A stretch of DNA of 64,000 bases, from the NCBI GenBank assembly GCA_016875395.1, contig VGRF01000002.1, positions 207,815 through 271,814 of the forward strand, in the 5' to 3' direction. This DNA comes from Deltaproteobacteria bacterium. Lineage in GTDB: Bacteria; Myxococcota_A; UBA9160; UBA6930. The notes under the pieces are model-generated. The model saw nothing but the letters and a program-made list of their open reading frames with translations. It ran no database searches and had not been told where the DNA came from. Shown piece by piece: positions 11,539-22,057 of this stretch (within the stretch, counting starts at the first letter, position 1; every line of letters starts with the position of its first letter). A program made the position numbers and the translations under genes.

Positions 11539-12972
11539 GTGAAGCGCGCGCGCATTCGCCTACGTTCCGCGCAGCGCCTCGAGGTTGCCGTGACCGCCGC
11601 CATACCCGCCGATCGCGCCCGCGCCGTGTTCCCGCCCGGGGTTCGCCATCGCACGCCGTTCCCGTTCATGCGCGCGCTGCGCGCCGATCCGCTCGAAGCC
11701 GTCGGGAGCGCGCTGCGCGATCACGGCGACGCCGTGGGCATTCAGGGCGGGCCGATACGCGTCGTGGTGCTCGCGCGCCCCGAGTACGCGCGCCACGTGC
11801 TGATCCGCAACGCGCGCAACTACACGAAGGGCCCGCAGATCGCGAAGCTGCGGAGGATCGCGGGCAACGGCATGTTCTTCGTCGACGGCGACGAGTGGCT
11901 CCGCCAGCGCCGCATGATCGTGCCCGCGTTCCAGCGCGCGAAGATCGAGGCGATGGTGCCGCATCTCGTCGCGGGCGCGGACGCGCTGCTCGCGCGCTGG
12001 GAGCGCGAGCGAGCGAGCGGCGAGTTCTTCGACGTCGCGCCCGATCTCTCGAAGACCGCGCTCGACATCGTGTGCCGCGCGATGTTCGGCAGCGACGTGC
12101 GCGAGCACGCCGACGCGTTCCATCGCCATGCCACGTTCGCCGCGAGCTACGCCCAGTACCTGTTCGATCACGTGCTGCCGGTTCCGCGCTGGATCCCGAC
12201 CGCGCGGAGCCGCCGCATCAACGAGGCGCTGCGCTGGGTGCACGGCTTCGTCAGCGAGATGATCGCGTCGCACCGGCGGCTCGACCCGCTGCCCGACGAC
12301 ATGCTCGGGTTGTTGTTGAGGTTGCGCGACGAGGAGACCGGCGCTGCGCTGAGCGACACCGAGCTCTACGACGAGCTGATGACGTTCGTGAACGCGGGCC
12401 ACGAGACGACCGCGGTCTCGCTGAGCTGGTCGCTCTACGAGATCGGGCGGGACCCCGCGCTGCGGGCGCGCCTCGAAGCCGAGGCCGACGCGGAGCTCGC
12501 TGCCAGCGAGCCCACGCTCGCGGGCCTCGCTCGCCTCGATTTGTTGGGGAGAACGATCCGCGAGGTACTGCGCCTGCATCCGCCCGGCTGGGCGATTCCG
12601 CGAGAGGCGAGCGAGCAGGACGAGATCGACGGCGTGCTGATTCCGAAGGGCGCGACCGCGCTGATCGCCGTCTACTTCCTGCACCGGCATCCCGAGTTCT
12701 GGAACGAGCCCGAGCGCTTCGACCCGGATCGCTGGCTCGAAGCGCGCGACGAGCCGCGCCACGCGTTCGCCTATCTCCCGTTCGGCCTCGGCGGCCGGCG
12801 CTGCGTGGGCGAAGACTTCGCGCTGCTCGAGCTGCGCGCGGTGCTCGCGCGCGTCCTGCAGCGCTTCCACGTGGAGATCGACCCCGCTCATCCCGTCGTG
12901 GCGCGTCCACAGCTCACGCTGAAGCCGGCGCACGGGGTGAGGCTGCGGCTCACGCCGCGGAGGGGCGCATGA
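11539..12972 (+). CDS. cytochrome P450
   Basis: 477 aa; heme loop FGLGGRRCVGEDFA; ETxR-type helix K region. Start codon uncertain. Confidence 0.85.
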   Translation: MKRARIRLRSAQRLEVAVTAAIPADRARAVFPPGVRHRTPFPFMRALRADPLEAVGSALRDHGDAVGIQGGPIRVVVLARPEYARHVLIRNARNYTKGPQIAKLRRIAGNGMFFVDGDEWLRQRRMIVPAFQRAKIEAMVPHLVAGADALLARWERERASGEFFDVAPDLSKTALDIVCRAMFGSDVREHADAFHRHATFAASYAQYLFDHVLPVPRWIPTARSRRINEALRWVHGFVSEMIASHRRLDPLPDDMLGLLLRLRDEETGAALSDTELYDELMTFVNAGHETTAVSLSWSLYEIGRDPALRARLEAEADAELAASEPTLAGLARLDLLGRTIREVLRLHPPGWAIPREASEQDEIDGVLIPKGATALIAVYFLHRHPEFWNEPERFDPDRWLEARDEPRHAFAYLPFGLGGRRCVGEDFALLELRAVLARVLQRFHVEIDPAHPVVARPQLTLKPAHGVRLRLTPRRGA

Positions 12973-14628: not shown

Positions 14629-15480
14629 TCAGACGAAGCGCGCGAGCCACTCTGCGAGATCGACCGAGAAGCCCGCCGCGTTCTTGTGGCCGCCGCCGCC
14701 CAGCGAGGTCGCGATCGCGGCGACGTCGCAGTCGCCGATCGAGTAGAGCGATACGTCCACGCGCCGGCCCTCGACGCGAAACACCGCGCCGGCTGGCGTG
14801 CCGTAGCGCGCGCGCAGCGCGAGCTCGTGGCCGATCTCGGCGCGCTGCGTGCGCGCGTTCACGCCCTCGAGACGCAGCGGCCCGATCGCGAGCGGCTGCG
14901 TGTGGGTGAGAGCGCGCTCGATCTCGATGCGAAACGCGCGCAGGATCGGCGCGCCCTCGTCCGCGAGCGCCTCGATCGGTTGCGCAGCGAGCGCGCTCCA
15001 CGCGCGGAACTCGCGCGGATGCGACGCGATCGTCGCGTTCACCTCGCGGCTGCGCGGCAGCTTCCACGCCCAGAGGTCTTGGTCCTCGACGTAGGCGAGC
15101 AGATCGGGCAGCGCCTCGTCCGGATGCAGCGCGCCCCACGCGAGCGCGGCGCCGGAGCGCGAGAGGTCGAAGCGCACCTGGTGGCCGGAGCGCTCGAGCT
15201 CGCGGGCGAGAAACGGGTCCGCCTCGAAGTCGCGCTGCGCGGTGACGTGATGATCGAGCACCACCAGCTGCGCCGCGTGCTCCGCGAGCGGCCGGTACGC
15301 GCGCGGCGGCGGCGCGATGTCGGCGAACAGCACGTACGCGCCCTCGAGCTCGTGCGCGCGCAGCGGGTCCTCGTGCCCGCGCGGCACGTACGCGCCGCGC
15401 TCCCCCCACGCGAGCCACGCCGACCACGCGGCCCCGAATCCATCGGGACAGCCCGCGTGGTAGATGCAGACGTGGCGCAT
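14629..15480 (-). CDS. DHH/DHHA1 family phosphoesterase
   Basis: Start taken at MRHVCIYHAGCPDG (ATG 15480). Contains the VVLDHH motif and the DHHA1 motif GGGGHKNAAGF. Confidence 0.75.
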   Translation of the reverse strand: MRHVCIYHAGCPDGFGAAWSAWLAWGERGAYVPRGHEDPLRAHELEGAYVLFADIAPPPRAYRPLAEHAAQLVVLDHHVTAQRDFEADPFLARELERSGHQVRFDLSRSGAALAWGALHPDEALPDLLAYVEDQDLWAWKLPRSREVNATIASHPREFRAWSALAAQPIEALADEGAPILRAFRIEIERALTHTQPLAIGPLRLEGVNARTQRAEIGHELALRARYGTPAGAVFRVEGRRVDVSLYSIGDCDVAAIATSLGGGGHKNAAGFSVDLAEWLARFV

Positions 15481-15493
15481 CGACCGAGCGTAC

Positions 15494-15516
15494 GTGCAAC
15501 GGGGACGTGCGTGCAT
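15494..15516 (+). repeat. single copy of the GGGGACGTNCGTGCA repeat unit (family A, copy 7)
   Basis: GTGCAACGGGGACGTGCGTGCAT matches the reverse complement of 20162-20184 with one mismatch. Lies 14 nt upstream of the DHH start codon, in the divergent DHH/pabB spacer. Confidence 0.5.
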
Positions 15517-15547
15517 CTCCGCTCTCGCCGTTAGCCTCCGCGCCCCG

Positions 15548-16915
15548 ATGCCCCCCGCTTACGCCTACAGCGCTGCGCCGATCCCGTGCGACTGGCTCGC
15601 CCTCGTCGCGGGCCTCGCACGGCGCCGCGGCTTCTGGTGGCTCGACAGCGCGCTCGTCGGCGCGCCGCTCGGGCGCTTCTCGTTCGCGGGCGCCGAGCCC
15701 GCGCAGCTCGCGCACCTCGACGGCGCGGCCGATCCGCTCGCCGCGCTGCGCGCGCTGCTGCCCGCTGCGGGGGCGCGCGTCGAGTGCGCAGACGCTGAGC
15801 CGTGCGCGCTGCCGTTCGTGGGCGGAGTCGTCACGGGGCTCGGCTACGAGCTCGGCTCGCGCTTCGAGCGCGTGCCGATCGCGCAGGACGACGCGCCCGT
15901 TCCGCTGGGCTCGTTCGCGCTGCGCGTCGACCGCTTCTTCGCGTGTGATCACCTGAATGCGCGCGTCTGGGCGATCGCGCTGTGCGCGGGAGCGAGCGCG
16001 CGCGAGGCGGCGCAGGCTGCGCGCGAGCTCGCAGCGAACGCGCCGTCCGCAGCGTGGCCTGAAGCGCCCGCGCCGCAGCGCGCACGCTCCGACGTGAGCC
16101 GCGGCTTCGATGCGCAGGAGCACGCGAAGGCGGTCGCGCTGATTCGCGAGCGCATCGCGGACGGCGCGCTCTATCAGGCGTGCCTCACACATCGCCTCGA
16201 AGCGCCGTTCGCGGGCGACGCGTTCGCTTATTACTGCGCGCTGCGCGCCGCGAACCCGGCGCCGTTCGGCGCCTTCATCGCGCTGCCCGAAGGTGCGATC
16301 GCGTGCAGCTCGCCCGAGCGCTTCCTGAAGCTCGACGGCGCGCGCTGGCTCGAGACGCGCCCGATCAAGGGCACGCGCCCGCGCCGTGTGGACCCCGCGG
16401 CGGACCGCGCCGAGGCGGCGGCGCTGCGCGCGAGCGAGAAGGACCGCGCGGAGAACCTGATGATCGTGGACCTCGCCCGGAACGATCTCGGGCGCGTCTC
16501 CGAGCTCGGCAGCGTGCACGTGCCCGAGCTGTTCGCGGTGGAGTCGTACGCCACGGTGCACCAGCTCGTCTCGACCGTGCGAGGACGGCTGCGACCCGAG
16601 CTCGATGCGACGGGCGCGATTCGCGCCGCGTTTCCGCCCGGCTCGATGACGGGCGCGCCGAAGCTCGCGGCGATGGCGCTGCTCGCGCGCATCGAGCGCG
16701 CGCGCCGCGGCCTCTACGCCGGTGCGCTCGGTTACCTCGACGTGCGCGGTGGCTGCGATCTCGCGGTGGTGATTCGCAGCGCGTTCCTGACCGCGGGACG
16801 CATCGCGCTGCACACGGGCGGCGGCATCGTCGCGGACAGCGACGCCACAGCGGAGTGGGCCGAGGCGGAGGCGAAGGCCGCGGCGCTGCTGCGCGCCGCC
16901 GGCGCGAAGGTTTGA
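15548..16915 (+). CDS. pabB: aminodeoxychorismate (or anthranilate) synthase component I
   Basis: Chorismate-binding family motifs SPERFLKL, PIKGTRPR, AFPPGSMTGAPK and GALGYLD. ATG at 15548 chosen. Confidence 0.75.
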   Translation: MPPAYAYSAAPIPCDWLALVAGLARRRGFWWLDSALVGAPLGRFSFAGAEPAQLAHLDGAADPLAALRALLPAAGARVECADAEPCALPFVGGVVTGLGYELGSRFERVPIAQDDAPVPLGSFALRVDRFFACDHLNARVWAIALCAGASAREAAQAARELAANAPSAAWPEAPAPQRARSDVSRGFDAQEHAKAVALIRERIADGALYQACLTHRLEAPFAGDAFAYYCALRAANPAPFGAFIALPEGAIACSSPERFLKLDGARWLETRPIKGTRPRRVDPAADRAEAAALRASEKDRAENLMIVDLARNDLGRVSELGSVHVPELFAVESYATVHQLVSTVRGRLRPELDATGAIRAAFPPGSMTGAPKLAAMALLARIERARRGLYAGALGYLDVRGGCDLAVVIRSAFLTAGRIALHTGGGIVADSDATAEWAEAEAKAAALLRAAGAKV

Positions 16916-16978
16916 GCGCGCGCTGCCGAGCCGCGCGTCTCGCGTGGTAGCTTCGCCTCCTTCCTCGGGAGGCCCACC

Positions 16979-18277
16979 ATGCATCGCGCGCTTCGTTTCG
17001 TGCTCGCCGCCGCAGTCGCGCTCGGCGCGGCGTTCGCCGCGCAGGCGGACGAGACCTGCCAGTCGCCGTACCTGCCCAAGATCGTCGGGCAGGAAGACTT
17101 CATCTACGTGTGGACGCTCGGGGTCGAGGGCCTCGGAGACGGCTCGGACAAGCTCGTCACGGTCGGCGCGAACCCGAGCCGCAGTGATTACGGCAAAGTC
17201 GTGCACTCGCTCTCTGTCGGCGGGCGCAACGAAGCGCACCACGCGGGCTTCACCGACGACCGCCGCCACCTTTGGGCCGGCGGCCTCGACTCGAGCAAGA
17301 TCTTCGTGTTCGACGTCGCGACGGATCCAGCAGCGCCGAAGCTGCTGCGCACGATCGAGGACTTCCCCGCGAAGACCGGCTGGGTCGGCCCGCACACGTT
17401 CTATCCGATCCCCGGCCGCATGCTGATCACCGGCCTCTCGAACGCGAAGGATCTCGGCGGGCGCACCGGCTTCGCCGAGTACAACAACGACGGCACGCTG
17501 GTGCGCACCGTGTCGATGCCCGAGGGCGCCCCTTACGGCTACGACCTGCGCATCAACGCGCACCTGAATCGCATGCTCTCGTCGTCGTTCACGGGCCACC
17601 AGAACTACATGCGCAAGCTGCCCGAGCTGTTGGGCGACGCCGAGGCGATGAAGAATTTCGGCAACACCATGGTGGTGTGGGACTTCCACGCGCGGCGGGC
17701 GCTGCAAACGCTCGACGTGCCGGGCGCGCCGCTCGAAGTGCGCTGGGCGCTCGCGCCCGACGCGGAGTACGCGTTCACGAGCACCGCGCTCACCTCGAAG
17801 ATCTGGGGCGTTTTCCGCAAGGAGGACGGCTCGTTCGAGGCGGTCGAGGTGGGCACGATCGGCGACCCCGCGAAGGTTCCGCTGCCCGTCGACATCTCGC
17901 TCTCGCGCGACGACAAGTTCCTGTTCGTCGACACCTTCTTCGACGGCACGGTGCGCGTGTTCGACGTGAGCAGCCCGCGCGCGGCGAAGCAGGTGTACGA
18001 ACACAAGATCGGCTCGCAGGTGAACATGGTCTCGCAGAGCTGGGACGGGAAGCGCCTCTACTTCACCAGCTCGCTGCTCGCGAACTGGGACGGCACGGGC
18101 CACCCCGACGAGCAGTTCCTGAAAGCGTTCACCTGGGACGGCGCCAAGCTCGCGCCCACTTTCGCGATCGACTTCACCGAGGCGAAGCTCGGCCGGCCCC
18201 ATCACATGCACTTCGGCCAGCTCGGCTTCTGGGGCCTGCCCGCGGAAGGCGCGGCGGGCGGTGAAGTGGCGAAGTAG
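16979..18277 (+). CDS. selenium-binding protein (SBP56) family, methanethiol oxidase-like
   Basis: 432 aa with a signal peptide. The YVWTLG..DKLVTV..GRNEAHHAGF..KIFVFDV pattern is typical of SBP56. Followed by an SCO1 gene, the pairing described for bacterial mtoX. Confidence 0.8.
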   Translation: MHRALRFVLAAAVALGAAFAAQADETCQSPYLPKIVGQEDFIYVWTLGVEGLGDGSDKLVTVGANPSRSDYGKVVHSLSVGGRNEAHHAGFTDDRRHLWAGGLDSSKIFVFDVATDPAAPKLLRTIEDFPAKTGWVGPHTFYPIPGRMLITGLSNAKDLGGRTGFAEYNNDGTLVRTVSMPEGAPYGYDLRINAHLNRMLSSSFTGHQNYMRKLPELLGDAEAMKNFGNTMVVWDFHARRALQTLDVPGAPLEVRWALAPDAEYAFTSTALTSKIWGVFRKEDGSFEAVEVGTIGDPAKVPLPVDISLSRDDKFLFVDTFFDGTVRVFDVSSPRAAKQVYEHKIGSQVNMVSQSWDGKRLYFTSSLLANWDGTGHPDEQFLKAFTWDGAKLAPTFAIDFTEAKLGRPHHMHFGQLGFWGLPAEGAAGGEVAK

Positions 18278-18290
18278 CTCGGGAGAAGCG

Positions 18291-18992
18291 ATGCGCTCGG
18301 TACTCGCGGGGATCGGGTTCGCGCTCGGGGCGCTCGCCGCCCACGCGAATCCACACGCGCAGCACCATGCGCCGCCGCCCGCCGAGCGCGAGCGTTTCGC
18401 GGCGCCGGCTGCCGGCACGTACGAGCTGCCGCCGATCGACCGCGTGGCGCAGCACTACTTGTTGGGGACGAGCGCGAAGCCCGAGCCGCTGATCGGCCTC
18501 GAGACCGGCGAGCTCGCGCTGATCTCGTTCGTGTACCTGCAGTGCGGCGAAGCCTGCCCGCTCGCGACGGCGATGCTGCACCGCCTCGACGGCGAGCTCG
18601 CGAAGCAGCCGGAGGTCGCGAAGCGCGTCGAGCTGGTGACGGTGAGCTTCGACCCGCAGCGCGACACGCCCGCGCAGATGCGCGCACTGCGCGAGCGCCT
18701 CGCACCGAAGGGGCGCTGGCGTTTCCTCACCGCCGCGAACGAGAGCGCACTGCGACCCGTGCTCGAGGACTTCGGGCAGGACGCGGTGTGGATTCCGGGC
18801 ACGCCCGAAGCGCCGGACTCTCTGCGCCACGTGCTCAAGGTGTTCGTGGTCGACGCGAACGGCGCGGTGCGCCAGATCTACTCGACGGGATTTCTCGACT
18901 CGCGCCTCGTGATCGCGGATCTGCGGACGCTGCTGGGTCTTTACTCGCCGGCGCCTGCACGCCCGGGATCCCACGCGCACCATCCCAGGTGA
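18291..18992 (+). CDS. SCO1/SenC family copper chaperone
   Basis: ATG at 18291 after GGGAGAAG. Thioredoxin-like fold with the CGEACP (CxxxCP) motif. Confidence 0.8.
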   Translation: MRSVLAGIGFALGALAAHANPHAQHHAPPPAERERFAAPAAGTYELPPIDRVAQHYLLGTSAKPEPLIGLETGELALISFVYLQCGEACPLATAMLHRLDGELAKQPEVAKRVELVTVSFDPQRDTPAQMRALRERLAPKGRWRFLTAANESALRPVLEDFGQDAVWIPGTPEAPDSLRHVLKVFVVDANGAVRQIYSTGFLDSRLVIADLRTLLGLYSPAPARPGSHAHHPR

Positions 18993-19968
18993 GCGCGCGC
19001 TTCGGCTCAGCCGCTGCGGGCTTTGGCGTGGGCGCGGGCTGCGCCGGCGCGACCGGCCGTGCCGCACGCATGCTCGGCCGCCGCTCCTCCAGCTCCTCGA
19101 GCGTGCGCGGCCAGTCCTTCCGTAACAACTGCGAGAGCGCGCGATCCGCGAGCACGCGTCCCCCCGTTTGACAGCGCGCGCAGTAGTTCGTCTCGTTCTC
19201 GGCGTGCACGATGCGCTGCACCGGCGCTGCGCAGACGGGGCATGGCTGCTTGAACTTGCCGTGCACCGCCATCTCGGGGCGGAACGCGGTGACTTCCTCC
19301 GGGAACGCATCGCCCGTTTGCACGCGTAGGCGCTCGGTCCACGCGCGCAGCGTCTCGCGAGTCGCGGCGAAGAGGCGCGCGATTTCTTCGGGCGCGAGGT
19401 TCGTCGTCATCTGCACCGGCGAGAGACGCGCGGCGTGGAGGATCTCGTCCGAGTATGCGTTGCCGATGCCGGAGAACACGTGCGGGTCGGTGAGCGTGCG
19501 CTTCAGCGTGTGCCGCTCGCGCGTGAGCAGCGCCGCGAACTCGGCTTCGTCGCACGCGAACGGGTCGACGCCGCCAGGGTCGTGCGCGAGCAGCGCCGCC
19601 TCGCCTCGCACGGCGTGCAGCGTCGCGCGCTTCTTCGTGCCGGCCTCGGTGAGCAGCAGCGTGCCGTTCTCGAAGTCGAAGCCGGCGTGCGCGTAGCGGC
19701 GCTGCAGCTTCGCGCCGAGCGCGCGCCAACGCAGGCGGCCCGCGATCATCAGGTGGATCACGAGAAACAGCTCGCCCTCGAAGCCGAGCACGACGCGCTT
19801 GCCGAGCCGGCGCGTCGTCACGAGCCGCCGCCCCGCGAGCTCCGCCAGTGGCGGCTCGACGCTGCGCAGCAGCGAGATGCTCGCGAGCCGCACGCCCTCG
19901 AGCCGCCTCCCGACCAGGCGCCGCTCGATCGCCTCGCGATAGAGCTCGATGTCGGGGAGCTCGGGCAT
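18835..19968 (-). CDS. Fpg/Nei family DNA glycosylase with long Pro/Ala/Arg-rich tail
   Basis: MPELPDIE catalytic N-terminus and a C4 zinc finger CPVC..CARC. The last ~90 aa are low complexity, and 158 bp overlap the convergent SCO1 gene. Confidence 0.75.
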   Translation of the reverse strand: MPELPDIELYREAIERRLVGRRLEGVRLASISLLRSVEPPLAELAGRRLVTTRRLGKRVVLGFEGELFLVIHLMIAGRLRWRALGAKLQRRYAHAGFDFENGTLLLTEAGTKKRATLHAVRGEAALLAHDPGGVDPFACDEAEFAALLTRERHTLKRTLTDPHVFSGIGNAYSDEILHAARLSPVQMTTNLAPEEIARLFAATRETLRAWTERLRVQTGDAFPEEVTAFRPEMAVHGKFKQPCPVCAAPVQRIVHAENETNYCARCQTGGRVLADRALSQLLRKDWPRTLEELEERRPSMRAARPVAPAQPAPTPKPAAAEPKRALTWDGARGIPGVQAPASKDPAASADPRSRGASREIPSSRSGAPRRSRRPRTP

Positions 19969-19985
19969 ACGCGCACTCTACGAAA

Positions 19986-20184
19986 CGCGCACAGGGGACG
20001 TACGTGCACAAAACCGCGCACCAGGGACGTACGTGCACAGAACCGCGCACTAGGGACGTACGTGCACACTCTCACGCGTAAGACGGTGCACGTACGTCCC
20101 AGGTGCGCGCAGATGTGCAGGTACGTCCCCAGTGCGCGCCACCGGGCGCGTTCGAGCGAGATGCACGTACGTCCCCGTTGCACG
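19986..20184. repeat. array of six copies of a 24-bp unit CGCGCACNNGGGACGTACGTGCAC, three direct then three inverted
   Basis: Direct copies at 19986-20009, 20015-20038 and 20044-20067 (29-bp period). Inverted copies at 20086-20109, 20115-20138 and 20162-20184. Fills the 227-bp spacer between the GT2 stop (20196) and the fpg start (19968). Confidence 0.75.
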
Positions 20185-20195
20185 TCCCGCGGGTG

Positions 20196-21218
20196 TCAGG
20201 CGGCGCAGACGAAGTCGCGTCGCTCCTCGTACCCCAGCGCGGCGAGCTCGGCGCGGATCTCGGCGCGCGGCTTCGAGCCCGCGACCGAGACGAGGAGCGG
20301 CAGCGCGCTTCGTTCGCGCAGCGCGGCGGGCGGCACGACCTCGGCGCCGTGGATGCGCTGACCGAGCCGGCGCGGGTGTAGCTCGATCACGCGCCCGAGC
20401 TGCTTGCCGCGGGCGGCGAGCGCTTTCGCGAGGGCGCGCCCGGTGCCGCCGTAGCCCCAGAGCGCGTAGCGCTCGTGCGCCGCGAGGAAGCCCTGCGCGA
20501 GGTACTCGGCCTTGCACGCGGTGAAGGCGGCCTGGGCGTAGGCGGGCGACGTGCGCGAGAGCCGGGCGGGGCCGTCGCGCCAGGCGAGCAGCTTCTCAGG
20601 CACGACACCGAGCGCACGCCCGGATGCGAGAACGCGCAGCACGAGGTCGTAGTCCTCGGGCCAGCCGCGCTCGCGATAGCCGAGGCTCCGAAGCAGCTCG
20701 CGGCGCAACACGAGGGTCGGATGCGCGAGCGGACACTCGACGAACGCGTCGCGCGCGATGTCGGCCGCGCTCGCGAGCGAGTTCAGCCACGCGCCGTAGT
20801 CGCGCAGGCCCTCCGAGATCGCGCGCTGCGGGAAGAGATGCACGTGGCAGCCCACACCCGCGAGCGCAGGGTCCGCGTCGAGCGCGTCGCACTGCTTCGC
20901 GAGACGCGTGCGTCGCATCACGTCGTCGGCGTCGAAGCGCGCGACGAGCGGTGCGCCGCACTCCGCGATGCCCCGATTCAGCGCCGCGACGAGCCCTTCT
21001 CGCGGTGCCGCGATCACGCGAAAGCGCGCGTCGCGTGCGGCGAAGCGCTGCGCGATCTCGCGCGACTCGTCGCGCGAGCCGTCGTCCACGATCACGCACT
21101 CGAAACGCGCCTCGCTCTGCCGCGCCACCGACGCGAGCGCGCACGCGAGCGTCGCCTCCGCATCGCGCACGGGCAGCAGCACCGAGACGCGCGGCGTCAG
21201 TCTGTGCGCCCCGATCAC
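20196..21218 (-). CDS. family 2 glycosyltransferase
   Basis: GTG at 21218 overlaps the upstream stop (GTGA). VSVLLPVRD, VIVDDGSRD and RFDADD motifs. Confidence 0.75.
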   Translation of the reverse strand: MIGAHRLTPRVSVLLPVRDAEATLACALASVARQSEARFECVIVDDGSRDESREIAQRFAARDARFRVIAAPREGLVAALNRGIAECGAPLVARFDADDVMRRTRLAKQCDALDADPALAGVGCHVHLFPQRAISEGLRDYGAWLNSLASAADIARDAFVECPLAHPTLVLRRELLRSLGYRERGWPEDYDLVLRVLASGRALGVVPEKLLAWRDGPARLSRTSPAYAQAAFTACKAEYLAQGFLAAHERYALWGYGGTGRALAKALAARGKQLGRVIELHPRRLGQRIHGAEVVPPAALRERSALPLLVSVAGSKPRAEIRAELAALGYEERRDFVCAA

Positions 21219-22057
21219 GCGCGCATCTCGCTGTCGCTCTGCCCGAGCGGTCCGAACAGGACCCGCGCGCCGAGCTCGCGGTGATCGAGCTGTGCGGCCT
21301 TGTCCATGCGCGCGACGAACTCGGGGCGCTGCATCGTCCAGCGCACCGAGCCGCTCGCGCAGCCGAGCGCGGCGAAGCGCGCCGCGACTTCGTCCCACCA
21401 CGGCACCACACGACCGGCGAGCGGCTCGAGCACGAGCACGCGCGCGCCGGCGGCGAGGCCGCGTTCGAGCGCGCCGAACACGCGCTCGCGGGCGTCGTCG
21501 TCGCACTCGTTGAGTAACCAGCCGAGCAGCGCGACATCGCCGCGCGCGAGCTTCGGGATGCCGAGGGGGAGCTGTGCGCGCTGCGTCTCGCCGCGCAGGC
21601 CGAACGCGGCGTACGTGCGGCGCGCTTCGGCGAGCGCGAAGCCCGAGCGCTCGAGCGCGAGAATCGGCGGGTGGCTCGGCGCCGCGAGCGCAGCGCCCGC
21701 GCCCGCCGCGCCGCTGCCTGCACCGAGGTCGACGATGCGCGCCGTGTCCGTGAAGCCGCGCTCGGGCAGCGCGCGCACGACGCCATACGCGGTCGCGAGA
21801 TGCAGCGGTGCGAAGTAGGCGGCGAACGCGGCGCGCTTCGCAGGCGAAGCGAGCGCGTCGCCCGGGTCGCGGCGCAGGGTGTAACGCCGAGAAAGCGCCT
21901 GAACGCCCTTGCGGATCTCGCTGAAGGTGAGCGGCGCCGCGCGCTCGACTGCGGAAGCGATCCATGCGTCGACACTCGCCGCGATCTCGGCGGGAAACTC
22001 GGCCGGCGGATCCGCAGCGAGCACCGCCTCCATCCCGTGTCCGCCGGCGCGAGTCAT
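21215..22057 (-). CDS. class I SAM-dependent methyltransferase
   Basis: Start at MTRAGGHG (22057). Motif I is VDLGAGSGAAG. Confidence 0.7.
   Translation of the reverse strand: MTRAGGHGMEAVLAADPPAEFPAEIAASVDAWIASAVERAAPLTFSEIRKGVQALSRRYTLRRDPGDALASPAKRAAFAAYFAPLHLATAYGVVRALPERGFTDTARIVDLGAGSGAAGAGAALAAPSHPPILALERSGFALAEARRTYAAFGLRGETQRAQLPLGIPKLARGDVALLGWLLNECDDDARERVFGALERGLAAGARVLVLEPLAGRVVPWWDEVAARFAALGCASGSVRWTMQRPEFVARMDKAAQLDHRELGARVLFGPLGQSDSEMRA

Follow-up and report, generated by a model that had tools for sequence, protein, structure and literature searches.

Background

The closest described relatives of the repeats reported here are the REP/REPIN-RAYT systems of Pseudomonas and the Enterobacteria, with short, extragenic, high-copy repeats that often occur as inverted doublets making long hairpins, and with a single-copy, syntenic and vertically inherited tyrosine transposase gene that is flanked by repeats of species-specific sequence (the REPtron). 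In E. coli such repeats build composite intergenic clusters (BIMEs) of two unit subtypes and linker motifs, in which the orientation of the units alternates. A second branch, the TIRtrons and their TIRYT enzymes (Di Nocera et al. 2013, PMC3733652), coincides for the most part with TnpA-Y1 subclass 2.1 (Quentin et al. 2018, PMC6006769) and with RAYT group 1 of Bertels. A C-terminal HTH is the hallmark of subclass 2.1, which is equated by Quentin et al. with the TIRYTs of Di Nocera (PMC6006769). Subclass 2.1, or group 1, is described as being without associated repeats (PMC6006769; bioRxiv 10.1101/2021.07.10.451892), and head-to-tail dimers are given as rare or absent in the known families (PMC3733652).

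Here we describe a repeat array in a stretch of 64,000 nucleotides (the window) from an uncultured Myxococcota genus. The array fills the spacer between a GT2 glycosyltransferase gene and the fpg gene, and its units recur on both sides of a RAYT-like gene elsewhere in the genome (contig C6). Like a TIRtron, the C6 locus consists of a single RAYT-like HUH/Y1 gene, with (in homologs) a C-terminal HTH of the HTH_23/HTH_28/Bac_DnaA_C type, between non-hairpin inverted repeats with a GGGG-headed motif, and the flanking repeat is dispersed as solo copies, dimers and clusters, as reported for S. maltophilia and K. versatilis. Unlike in the TIRtrons, the motif is GGGGACGT rather than GGGG[AT][CG]A[CG] (six of the eight positions fit, positions 7 and 8 do not), phased head-to-tail arrays of up to four units dominate, and the host is a member of the Myxococcota. 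The likeness to the REP/REPIN-RAYT systems and the REPtron extends to all the properties listed above, but the units are non-palindromic and without GTAG tag, and the protein scores below the NCBIfam RAYT cut-off and probably has the extra HTH domain. The array in the window, made of A units and half a B doublet (see below), is composite in the way of the BIMEs; instead of alternating, however, a direct run faces an inverted run, and the junctions between A units over the whole genome are head-to-tail in 42 cases (41 at exactly 29 bp), inward in 11 and outward in none.

It is highly probable that the fpg array is a non-autonomous cluster of units of a genome-specific, two-subtype family of the REP/RAYT kind that belongs to the TIR-type branch, with the C6 gene as the candidate enzyme. 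Judged against the published descriptions, TIRYT/TIRtron (TnpA-Y1 subclass 2.1) would be the best-fitting branch. The strictly phased 29-bp head-to-tail arrays are unusual, and so is the finding that orthologous spacers of sister species repeatedly carry repeat variants of their own.

Results and discussion

The array between the GT2 and fpg genes

The GT2-fpg spacer (19969-20195, 227 bp) contains direct copies of the unit at 19986, 20015 and 20044 and inverted copies at 20086, 20115 and 20161/2 (Table 1); the unit nearest to fpg begins 17 nt from its ATG. The initial annotation had listed three direct and three inverted units (24 bp there, 24-25 bp here), a central inverted pair with 22 of 24 positions complementary around an 18-nt loop, the length of the spacer and the distance to fpg, and all of this was reproduced, with a 29-bp period that is exact; the flanking genes (Fpg/Nei, GT2 and DHHA1) were also as it had named them. 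Four of the six copies carry the core 15-mer (GGGACGTACGTGCAC) without change, and two carry it with a single mismatch. The 64-kb window holds 13 matches to it at up to three mismatches, against 3.0 +/- 1.9 in shuffles, and none of 100 shuffles reached 13.

The reading of the six copies as one unit needed correction, since the six repeats are real but the copy at 20162 is of subtype B and not of the CGCGCAC-type A. Likewise, the variant copy reported at 15494-15516 is present and of the same (B) subtype as the 20162 copy, and its assignment to the CGCGCAC-type fails. Its orientation needed correction too: it lies like the three fpg-proximal units (plus strand), but opposite to the 20162 copy relative to its minus-strand gene. 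As it occupies a divergent spacer, a PabB/TrpE-like gene (15548-16915, plus strand) has it on its upstream side just as much. The stretch 20140-20185 looks like the loop and right arm of a B-type doublet, and the B part (20140-20195) is near-identical to an arm of the doublet that lies behind the RAYT-like gene, on its downstream side (compare C6:89371-89439 and C35:8902-8970).

A fold of these 200 bp into a long hairpin had been proposed and was now computed: the whole spacer forms one long hairpin, both as single-stranded DNA (-82.8 kcal/mol, z = -9.3) and as RNA (-156.8 kcal/mol, z = -10.2). A permissive Rfam scan of window positions 15000-21000 gave only sub-threshold matches to miRNA precursors, which are caused by the long hairpin, and no known RNA family. 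A terminator scan of the spacer returned three weak terminator-like matches, unconvincing in DNA of 70% GC. A CRISPR array was considered as well and rejected, since the 29-bp period is made up of a 25-bp unit and a 4-nt linker and leaves no unique spacers, and no CRISPR family was matched by Rfam in the same 15000-21000 region.

Table 1. Features of the array, of the RAYT-like locus and of related genomes. Plain numbers are window positions, C numbers are contig positions in the source genome (G000), and G002 to G006 and L075 denote related lineages.
Feature	Position	Strand	Sequence or remark
Fpg/Nei-family DNA glycosylase gene	18835..19968	-	downstream of array; bystander
Partial unit, abuts fpg start codon	19969..19985	+	ACGCGCAC only; half-site CGCGCAC at 19971-19977
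Three type-A units, head-to-tail, left hairpin arm	19986..20068	+	CGCGCAC-NN-GGGACGTACGTGCAC + 4-5 nt linker, 29-bp period; cf. genome-wide type-A consensus
Loop separating the inward-facing arrays	20069..20085	.	ACTCTCACGCGTAAGACG; resembles other A/B doublet loops (CTCAACGYGT..AAG)
Two inverted type-A units, right hairpin arm	20086..20139	-	29-bp period
Loop-like remnant and one type-B unit	20140..20195	-	ATGCACGTACGTCCCCGTTGCACGT, then tail CCCGCGG
GT2 glycosyltransferase gene	20196..21965	-	upstream of array; bystander; stop codon 10 nt from last unit
DHHA1 protein gene	14629-15480	-	
Solo type-B unit	15492..15516	+	ACGTGCAACGGGGACGTGCGTGCAT; in 67-nt divergent spacer between DHHA1 gene and PabB/TrpE-like gene
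PabB/TrpE-like gene	15548-16915	+	start about 15548
Three type-A units	C6:88354-88436		88 nt upstream of RAYT-like gene
GGTCCC(G) motif	C6:88500-88512		L005 about 1416-1430; also in L007-L017 and in the C30 and C25 upstream regions of G000
Type-B doublet	C6:89371-89439		24 nt downstream of RAYT-like gene
Unit flanking homolog in G003, G005			TTGCGTA-GGGGACGTAC-TTGCGTA
Unit flanking homolog in G006			TTTCATC-GGGGACGTAC-TTTCATC
Unit flanking homolog in L075			GTGCAT-CT-GGGACGTAC-GTGCAT; head-to-tail pair, AAAA linker
Unit flanking homolog in G002			AAAGGCAA-CTC-GGGGACGT-TG-TTGCCTTT; true hairpin (z = -5)
Array locus and its orthologous spacers	C17:81062		empty in 4/4 informative congeners
Array locus and its orthologous spacers	C5:42225		empty in three congeners; G003-type doublet in G003
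Array loci and their orthologous spacers	C16:30112, C35:25983		species-specific units in 4/4 genomes
Array loci and their orthologous spacers	C3:163013, C35:8902		mixed occupancy

A two-subtype repeat family in the genome

In the source genome (4.51 Mb, 70% GC, 96 contigs) there are 51 exact copies of the core 15-mer and 125 matches at up to two mismatches, and searches with 25-nt templates gave about 105 units at 40 loci. Type A accounts for 81 units (consensus gCGCGCACcnGGGACGTACGTGCACnnnn), of which 2-4 follow one another head-to-tail at 29 bp; such a run often faces an inverted one, and the loop between the two measures 4-29 nt, or 77 nt in a single case. Type B comprises 24 units (aCGTGCAaCGGGGACGTACGTGCAtCtC), mostly inverted doublets with a loop of ~19 nt; the sequence of this subtype, ACGTGCAACGGGGACGTACGTGCAT, has the structure ACGTGCAAC-GGGGACGTAC-GTGCAT. 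The B doublet folds strongly (z = -7.9), whereas single units fold into hairpins no better than their shuffles do (z = +0.9 for A and -1.3 for B), and only inverted pairs of units form hairpins. The GTAG tag of canonical REPs was absent from the A and B units. The core's reverse complement does contain CGTC, the tag of another REP superfamily (Di Nocera), but those elements differ structurally, being hairpins with 8-9 bp stems that start with AT and carry CCA tails, which does not hold for the A and B units. The hexamers GTGCAC, CGTACG and GCGCGC are abundant in the unit, but a role as a restriction-site decoy was discarded, since they are undepleted genome-wide (observed/expected 0.89-1.01).

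The loci are intergenic in 39 of 40 cases while ~88% of the genome was called as coding, gene calls being those of a home-made codon log-odds caller (4122 genes, 88% coding) whose choice of start codons could favour intergenic placement. The arrays usually fill their spacers to within 0-30 nt of both neighbouring genes. The exact A-type 15-mer was found in none of 40 relatives and the A-type unit had no match among the GTDB species representatives, and the exact A-type unit is therefore private to this population.

A RAYT-like gene flanked by the same units

The only match to Pfam Y1_Tnp in the genome (24.5 bits, cut-off 23) is a gene of 273 codons at C6:88525-89346, which has type-A units on its upstream side and a type-B doublet on its downstream side (Table 1). 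The annotation 'REP element-mobilizing transposase RayT' is given to relatives of the protein, a Myxococcota MAG supplied its nearest named homolog, and the protein itself scores 41 bits against NCBIfam REP_Tyr_transpos, below the cut-off of 80. The HuH motif (N59-H60-x-H62; H60-Y-H62) and the motif Y119-x3-N123-P124 (Y119-GAR-N123-P124) are invariant in 26 aligned homologs; the form Y-x3-NP is the class-2 Y motif of Quentin et al. (PMC6006769). The AlphaFold (AF2) model has a pLDDT of 90 and places three helices at residues 233-272. Its best PDB match by Foldseek was 4er8_A (E = 4.6e-6, target TM 0.69), a structure of TnpA-REP, the REP-associated tyrosine transposase of E. coli, in complex with a REP hairpin, followed by IS608 TnpA and ISDra2 TnpA; 4ER8 was recovered by the fold search only, since a PDB sequence search with the protein gave nothing at E <= 1. 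The predicted protein thus combines intact catalytic motifs with what is, in the model, a RAYT-like fold.

The C-terminal HTH was recognized in homologs of 43-66% identity, in which HTH_23, HTH_28 and Bac_DnaA_C matched at the aligned C-terminus, HTH_23 (P0003 and P0010) and HTH_28 (P0010) above the Pfam cut-offs and Bac_DnaA_C (P0020) with 25.8 bits against a cut-off of 31.5. The tail of the protein of the source genome itself gave a weak match to HTH_38 (E = 0.02), and the HTH is otherwise visible there as the three helices of the model.

Besides this one gene of the C6 lineage the genome has two RAYT-like paralogs of 32-35% identity, and because these exist, the assignment of the repeat to the C6 gene within this genome draws on the flanking alone. 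Flanking, taken together with the co-variation across congeners described below, points to a link between enzyme and repeat. The paralogs (C30:6150-6947, minus strand, 35%; C25:61638-62408, minus strand, 32%) are each bracketed by a repeat of their own, in one case a GGGGACGTTCCGCAAG.AAGTAAAG hairpin doublet, the head of which (GGGGACGTTC) occurs 73 times in the genome, and in the other a GGCGGACGTTTCGGCCGGGCCGAAATGTCCG hairpin. The GGGGACGTTC 10-mer is present in 50-164 copies in every genome of the genus.

We also observed the motif GGTCCC(G) at 14-21 nt upstream of the start codon in 14 of the 14 RAYT-like orthologs and paralogs examined, from several genera. The reverse complement of GGTCCCG, CGGGACC, resembles the repeat core GGGGACG, and the enzyme gene may be autoregulated or processed at this motif.

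Enzyme and repeat arms in congeners

Homologs of the enzyme are present in all eight congeners. In G003 (64% identity), G005 (60%), G002 (43%) and in L075 (77%, from another JGI sample) the gene lies between the same two genes, and in G006 (59%) the upstream gene is different. Inverted, lineage-specific units flank the homologs in all five of these (Table 1), and comparison of the flanking units over the five lineages and the source genome indicates that the arms change and that the core GGGGACGT stays. The shared core sequence GGGGACGTAC has 54, 23, 19 and 72 copies in the source genome, G003, G005 and G006, respectively, against 0-5 for reversed controls. These four genomes, the richest in the genus, are those with orthologs of at least 59% identity, and the correlation between enrichment and ortholog is imperfect, as G007 and G009 have a weaker excess of GGGGACGTAC without a close ortholog. 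Enzyme and repeat arms co-vary across the congeners.

Another genus-wide family, with two cores per unit (GGGACGTTCCACGACGAACGCGTCGAAACACCCCGGGACGTTC), was noticed in G002, G005 and G008 (e.g. G005:C104:10749-10791 and 11647-11689; G002:C508:248-290 and 1118-1160), and in G002 and G005 short RAYT-like genes lie between inverted copies of it.

Occupancy of orthologous spacers

The fpg orthologs of the eight congeners are 77-86% identical. G004 and G005 have only 13 and 26 nt, respectively, between the GT2 stop and the fpg start. G002 and G008, with the same synteny, and G006, with a different upstream gene, carry in the fpg spacer a doublet of the GGGGACGTTC-type repeat, each in the variant of its own species. 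Five congeners were queried with the joined flanks of another 12 loci of the source genome, and 11 loci gave matches; six of these are listed in Table 1, and at the other five no GGGGACGT-type element was found at the orthologous spacers. With fpg included, a GGGGACGT-core repeat was thus present at the orthologous spacer of at least one other species for six of 12 loci, in a sample that is small and non-random and drawn from related genomes, while core counts lead to an estimate of only a few per cent of the spacers per genome holding such a repeat.

From these sequences the shared spacers would seem to be hot spots, or else places where resident copies were replaced by the current species-specific variant. 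Among the enterobacterial palindromic units, species-specific units have likewise been noted at shared sites. A further observation concerns the G002 spacer orthologous to C3:128135 of the source genome (L045, G002:C553:6100-6400), which holds a long inverted repeat of ~190 bp from a family without relation to the present one (ggagaccgacccaagatggg ... cccactcttgggtcggtctcc). Palindromic elements of more than one kind thus seem to be drawn to the same spacers.

Proposed origin of the array

In the preferred reading, the single-copy, vertically inherited HUH/Y1 'domesticated transposase' encoded at C6:88525-89346 would recognize the conserved bipartite motif and copy units into intergenic DNA. 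The ancestral GT2-fpg spacer would have been ~13-26 bp long and later filled by units, probably by a B-type doublet first and by the phased A-type array afterwards, giving the inverted structure of 200 bp. We infer the movement of units by the C6 enzyme, with the empty orthologous sites as indirect evidence, and likewise a single-strand mechanism and the route by which head-to-tail arrays arise. At the free positions, the likeness between units of the same array does not exceed that between units of different arrays (23.3 versus 23.3 of 29 positions, permutation p = 0.45), which makes recent local duplication unlikely; the arrays may either grow by additions of single units beside existing ones, or be old, with 22 constrained positions kept. 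Any effect of the hairpin on the expression of GT2 and fpg would be conjecture, for instance protection of the mRNA 3'-end or attenuation, roles known from the REPs of enterobacteria.

No transposition events, excision products or within-population polymorphism were seen in the available contigs, the arrays being identical in all near-identical ones, and over six metagenome samples neither the copy number nor the sequence of the arrays varied between contigs that are 99.9-100% identical. This invariance across samples supports the assembly and gives no sign of current activity.

A bolder version of this reading is speculative and, in our judgement, has a rather low chance of being right: a RAYT of the HTH branch, which in the main surveys is said to have lost its repeats or to have been without them from the start, would keep living, non-hairpin units throughout the genus, with variable arms around the GGGGACGT core, enzyme and arms would diversify together, and units would home to spacers that are already occupied. 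If so, the phased 29-bp arrays and the species-specific variants at orthologous sites would result from homing rather than from random insertion or simple vertical decay, and the conserved, core-like GGTCCCG in front of the RAYT start codons would be a site for regulation or processing that belongs to the enzyme itself.

Possible selection for a host function

Among the other explanations, the one that survives best is that the units are a structural element co-opted by the host (with the phased 29-bp arrays as a binding platform for the HTH domain of the RAYT-like protein or for a nucleoid protein, or as a stabilizer of mRNA 3'-ends or an insulator between genes), kept by selection for that function and not by ongoing transposition. 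In line with this, 22 of the 29 positions are nearly invariant, in contrast to the free NN and 4-nt linker, 41 of 42 neighbours keep the exact 29-bp phase, the likeness of units is no higher within arrays than between them, repeats take up the same spacers in more than one species and the RNA hairpin is very stable; enterobacterial REPs and BIMEs are described as playing such roles (PMC3733652). However, sister species are without the element at many of the orthologous spacers, so that no single locus is required, and the arm sequence changes completely from one species to the next. We regard such a role as improbable as the main explanation, and it is in any case compatible with spread driven by a RAYT.

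A proposed shared control site for nucleic-acid enzymes

The initial annotation had favoured a shared operator or 5'-UTR element; in such a reading the units would be recognized by a transcription factor or an RNA structure that co-regulates fpg, the DHH phosphoesterase gene and other nucleic-acid enzymes. The position of the units at 17 nt from the start of fpg and at 13 nt from that of the DHHA1 gene is suggestive of this, as is the bipartite motif with its invariant and free positions, which is what protein-binding sites look like. The genome-wide distribution tells otherwise. Mapping of the 15-mer, named beforehand as the test of the operator, gave dispersed copies, the outcome that had been given as its refutation. 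The 40 scattered loci are without bias to the promoter side, being located between tandem genes in 20 cases, divergent genes in 11 and convergent genes in eight, which matches the share of the three classes in the intergenic base pairs (55, 28 and 17%). There is no functional bias either. The genes downstream of 10 loci are unrelated in function (encoding a GST, an aldo-keto reductase, two enoyl-CoA hydratases, a pseudouridine synthase, a hydrolase, a luciferase-like enzyme, a MaoC protein, a glyoxalase and an APH kinase) and only one of these array-adjacent genes, that of the RluA-type pseudouridine synthase, acts on nucleic acid. Moreover, the element is missing from the short fpg spacers of G004 and G005, and a promoter scan of the GT2-fpg spacer found no sigma-70-like or other promoter-like site. 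A control function of this kind is therefore very improbable. The second possibility raised in the annotation, a REP/MITE-like repeat, gained support and could be extended by the RAYT-like gene that is flanked by the same A and B units. The spacer array is an ordinary REP-like element of the selfish type and not a control site for DNA-repair genes.

Replication slippage and assembly artefact as possible origins

If the arrays were local minisatellites, enlarged by slippage of replication from one direct CGYGCAC half-site to the next (17 and 12 nt apart) and without any relation to the RAYT-like gene, this would account for the head-to-tail organization and the fixed period, and partial tandem duplications of B units were indeed found (C3:57941, C26:18668 and, on C6, upstream of the B doublet). 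Slippage fails to explain the 40 dispersed loci and the flanking of the RAYT-like gene, though, and the equal similarity within and between arrays and the constant copy number in all samples argue against it too; we give it very little credence. Least credible of all, to the point of being negligible, is an artefact of assembly, to which a draft of 96 contigs from a metagenome with repeats prone to collapse or mis-joining might be open, as the units of the array differ from each other at their free positions, the arrays at C3:4336 and on C48 are base-for-base identical in contigs from two different samples each, and intact syntenic genes flank the array.

Significance for annotation and for the RAYT branch

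With the REP-like reading a false lead, the regulon box of fpg and DHH, is removed from the annotation, and it is explained why near-identical 29-bp units take up many spacers of this genome from one end to the other. The genus also offers a natural series, with at least three paralogous enzyme-repeat pairs per genome, a common 8-nt core and freely changing arms, and comparison within this series could reveal the recognition code used by the RAYT/TIRYT enzymes with an HTH, a branch that is poorly understood. That the same spacers are taken by the variants of different species bears on the question of random spread versus homing to existing copies.

Minor observations on neighbouring genes

The Fpg/Nei open reading frame (18835-19968, minus strand) encodes 377 aa, of which the glycosylase domains finish near residue 270; the remaining C-terminal tail of ~105 residues is rich in Pro, Ala and Arg and matched no family. 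The longest open reading frame of the DHHA1 gene (14629-15516, minus strand) begins at an ATG (15516) that comes from the GTGCAT end of the solo B unit. The ATG at 15480 is more likely to be the start of this gene, and automatic annotation may over-extend it by 12 codons.
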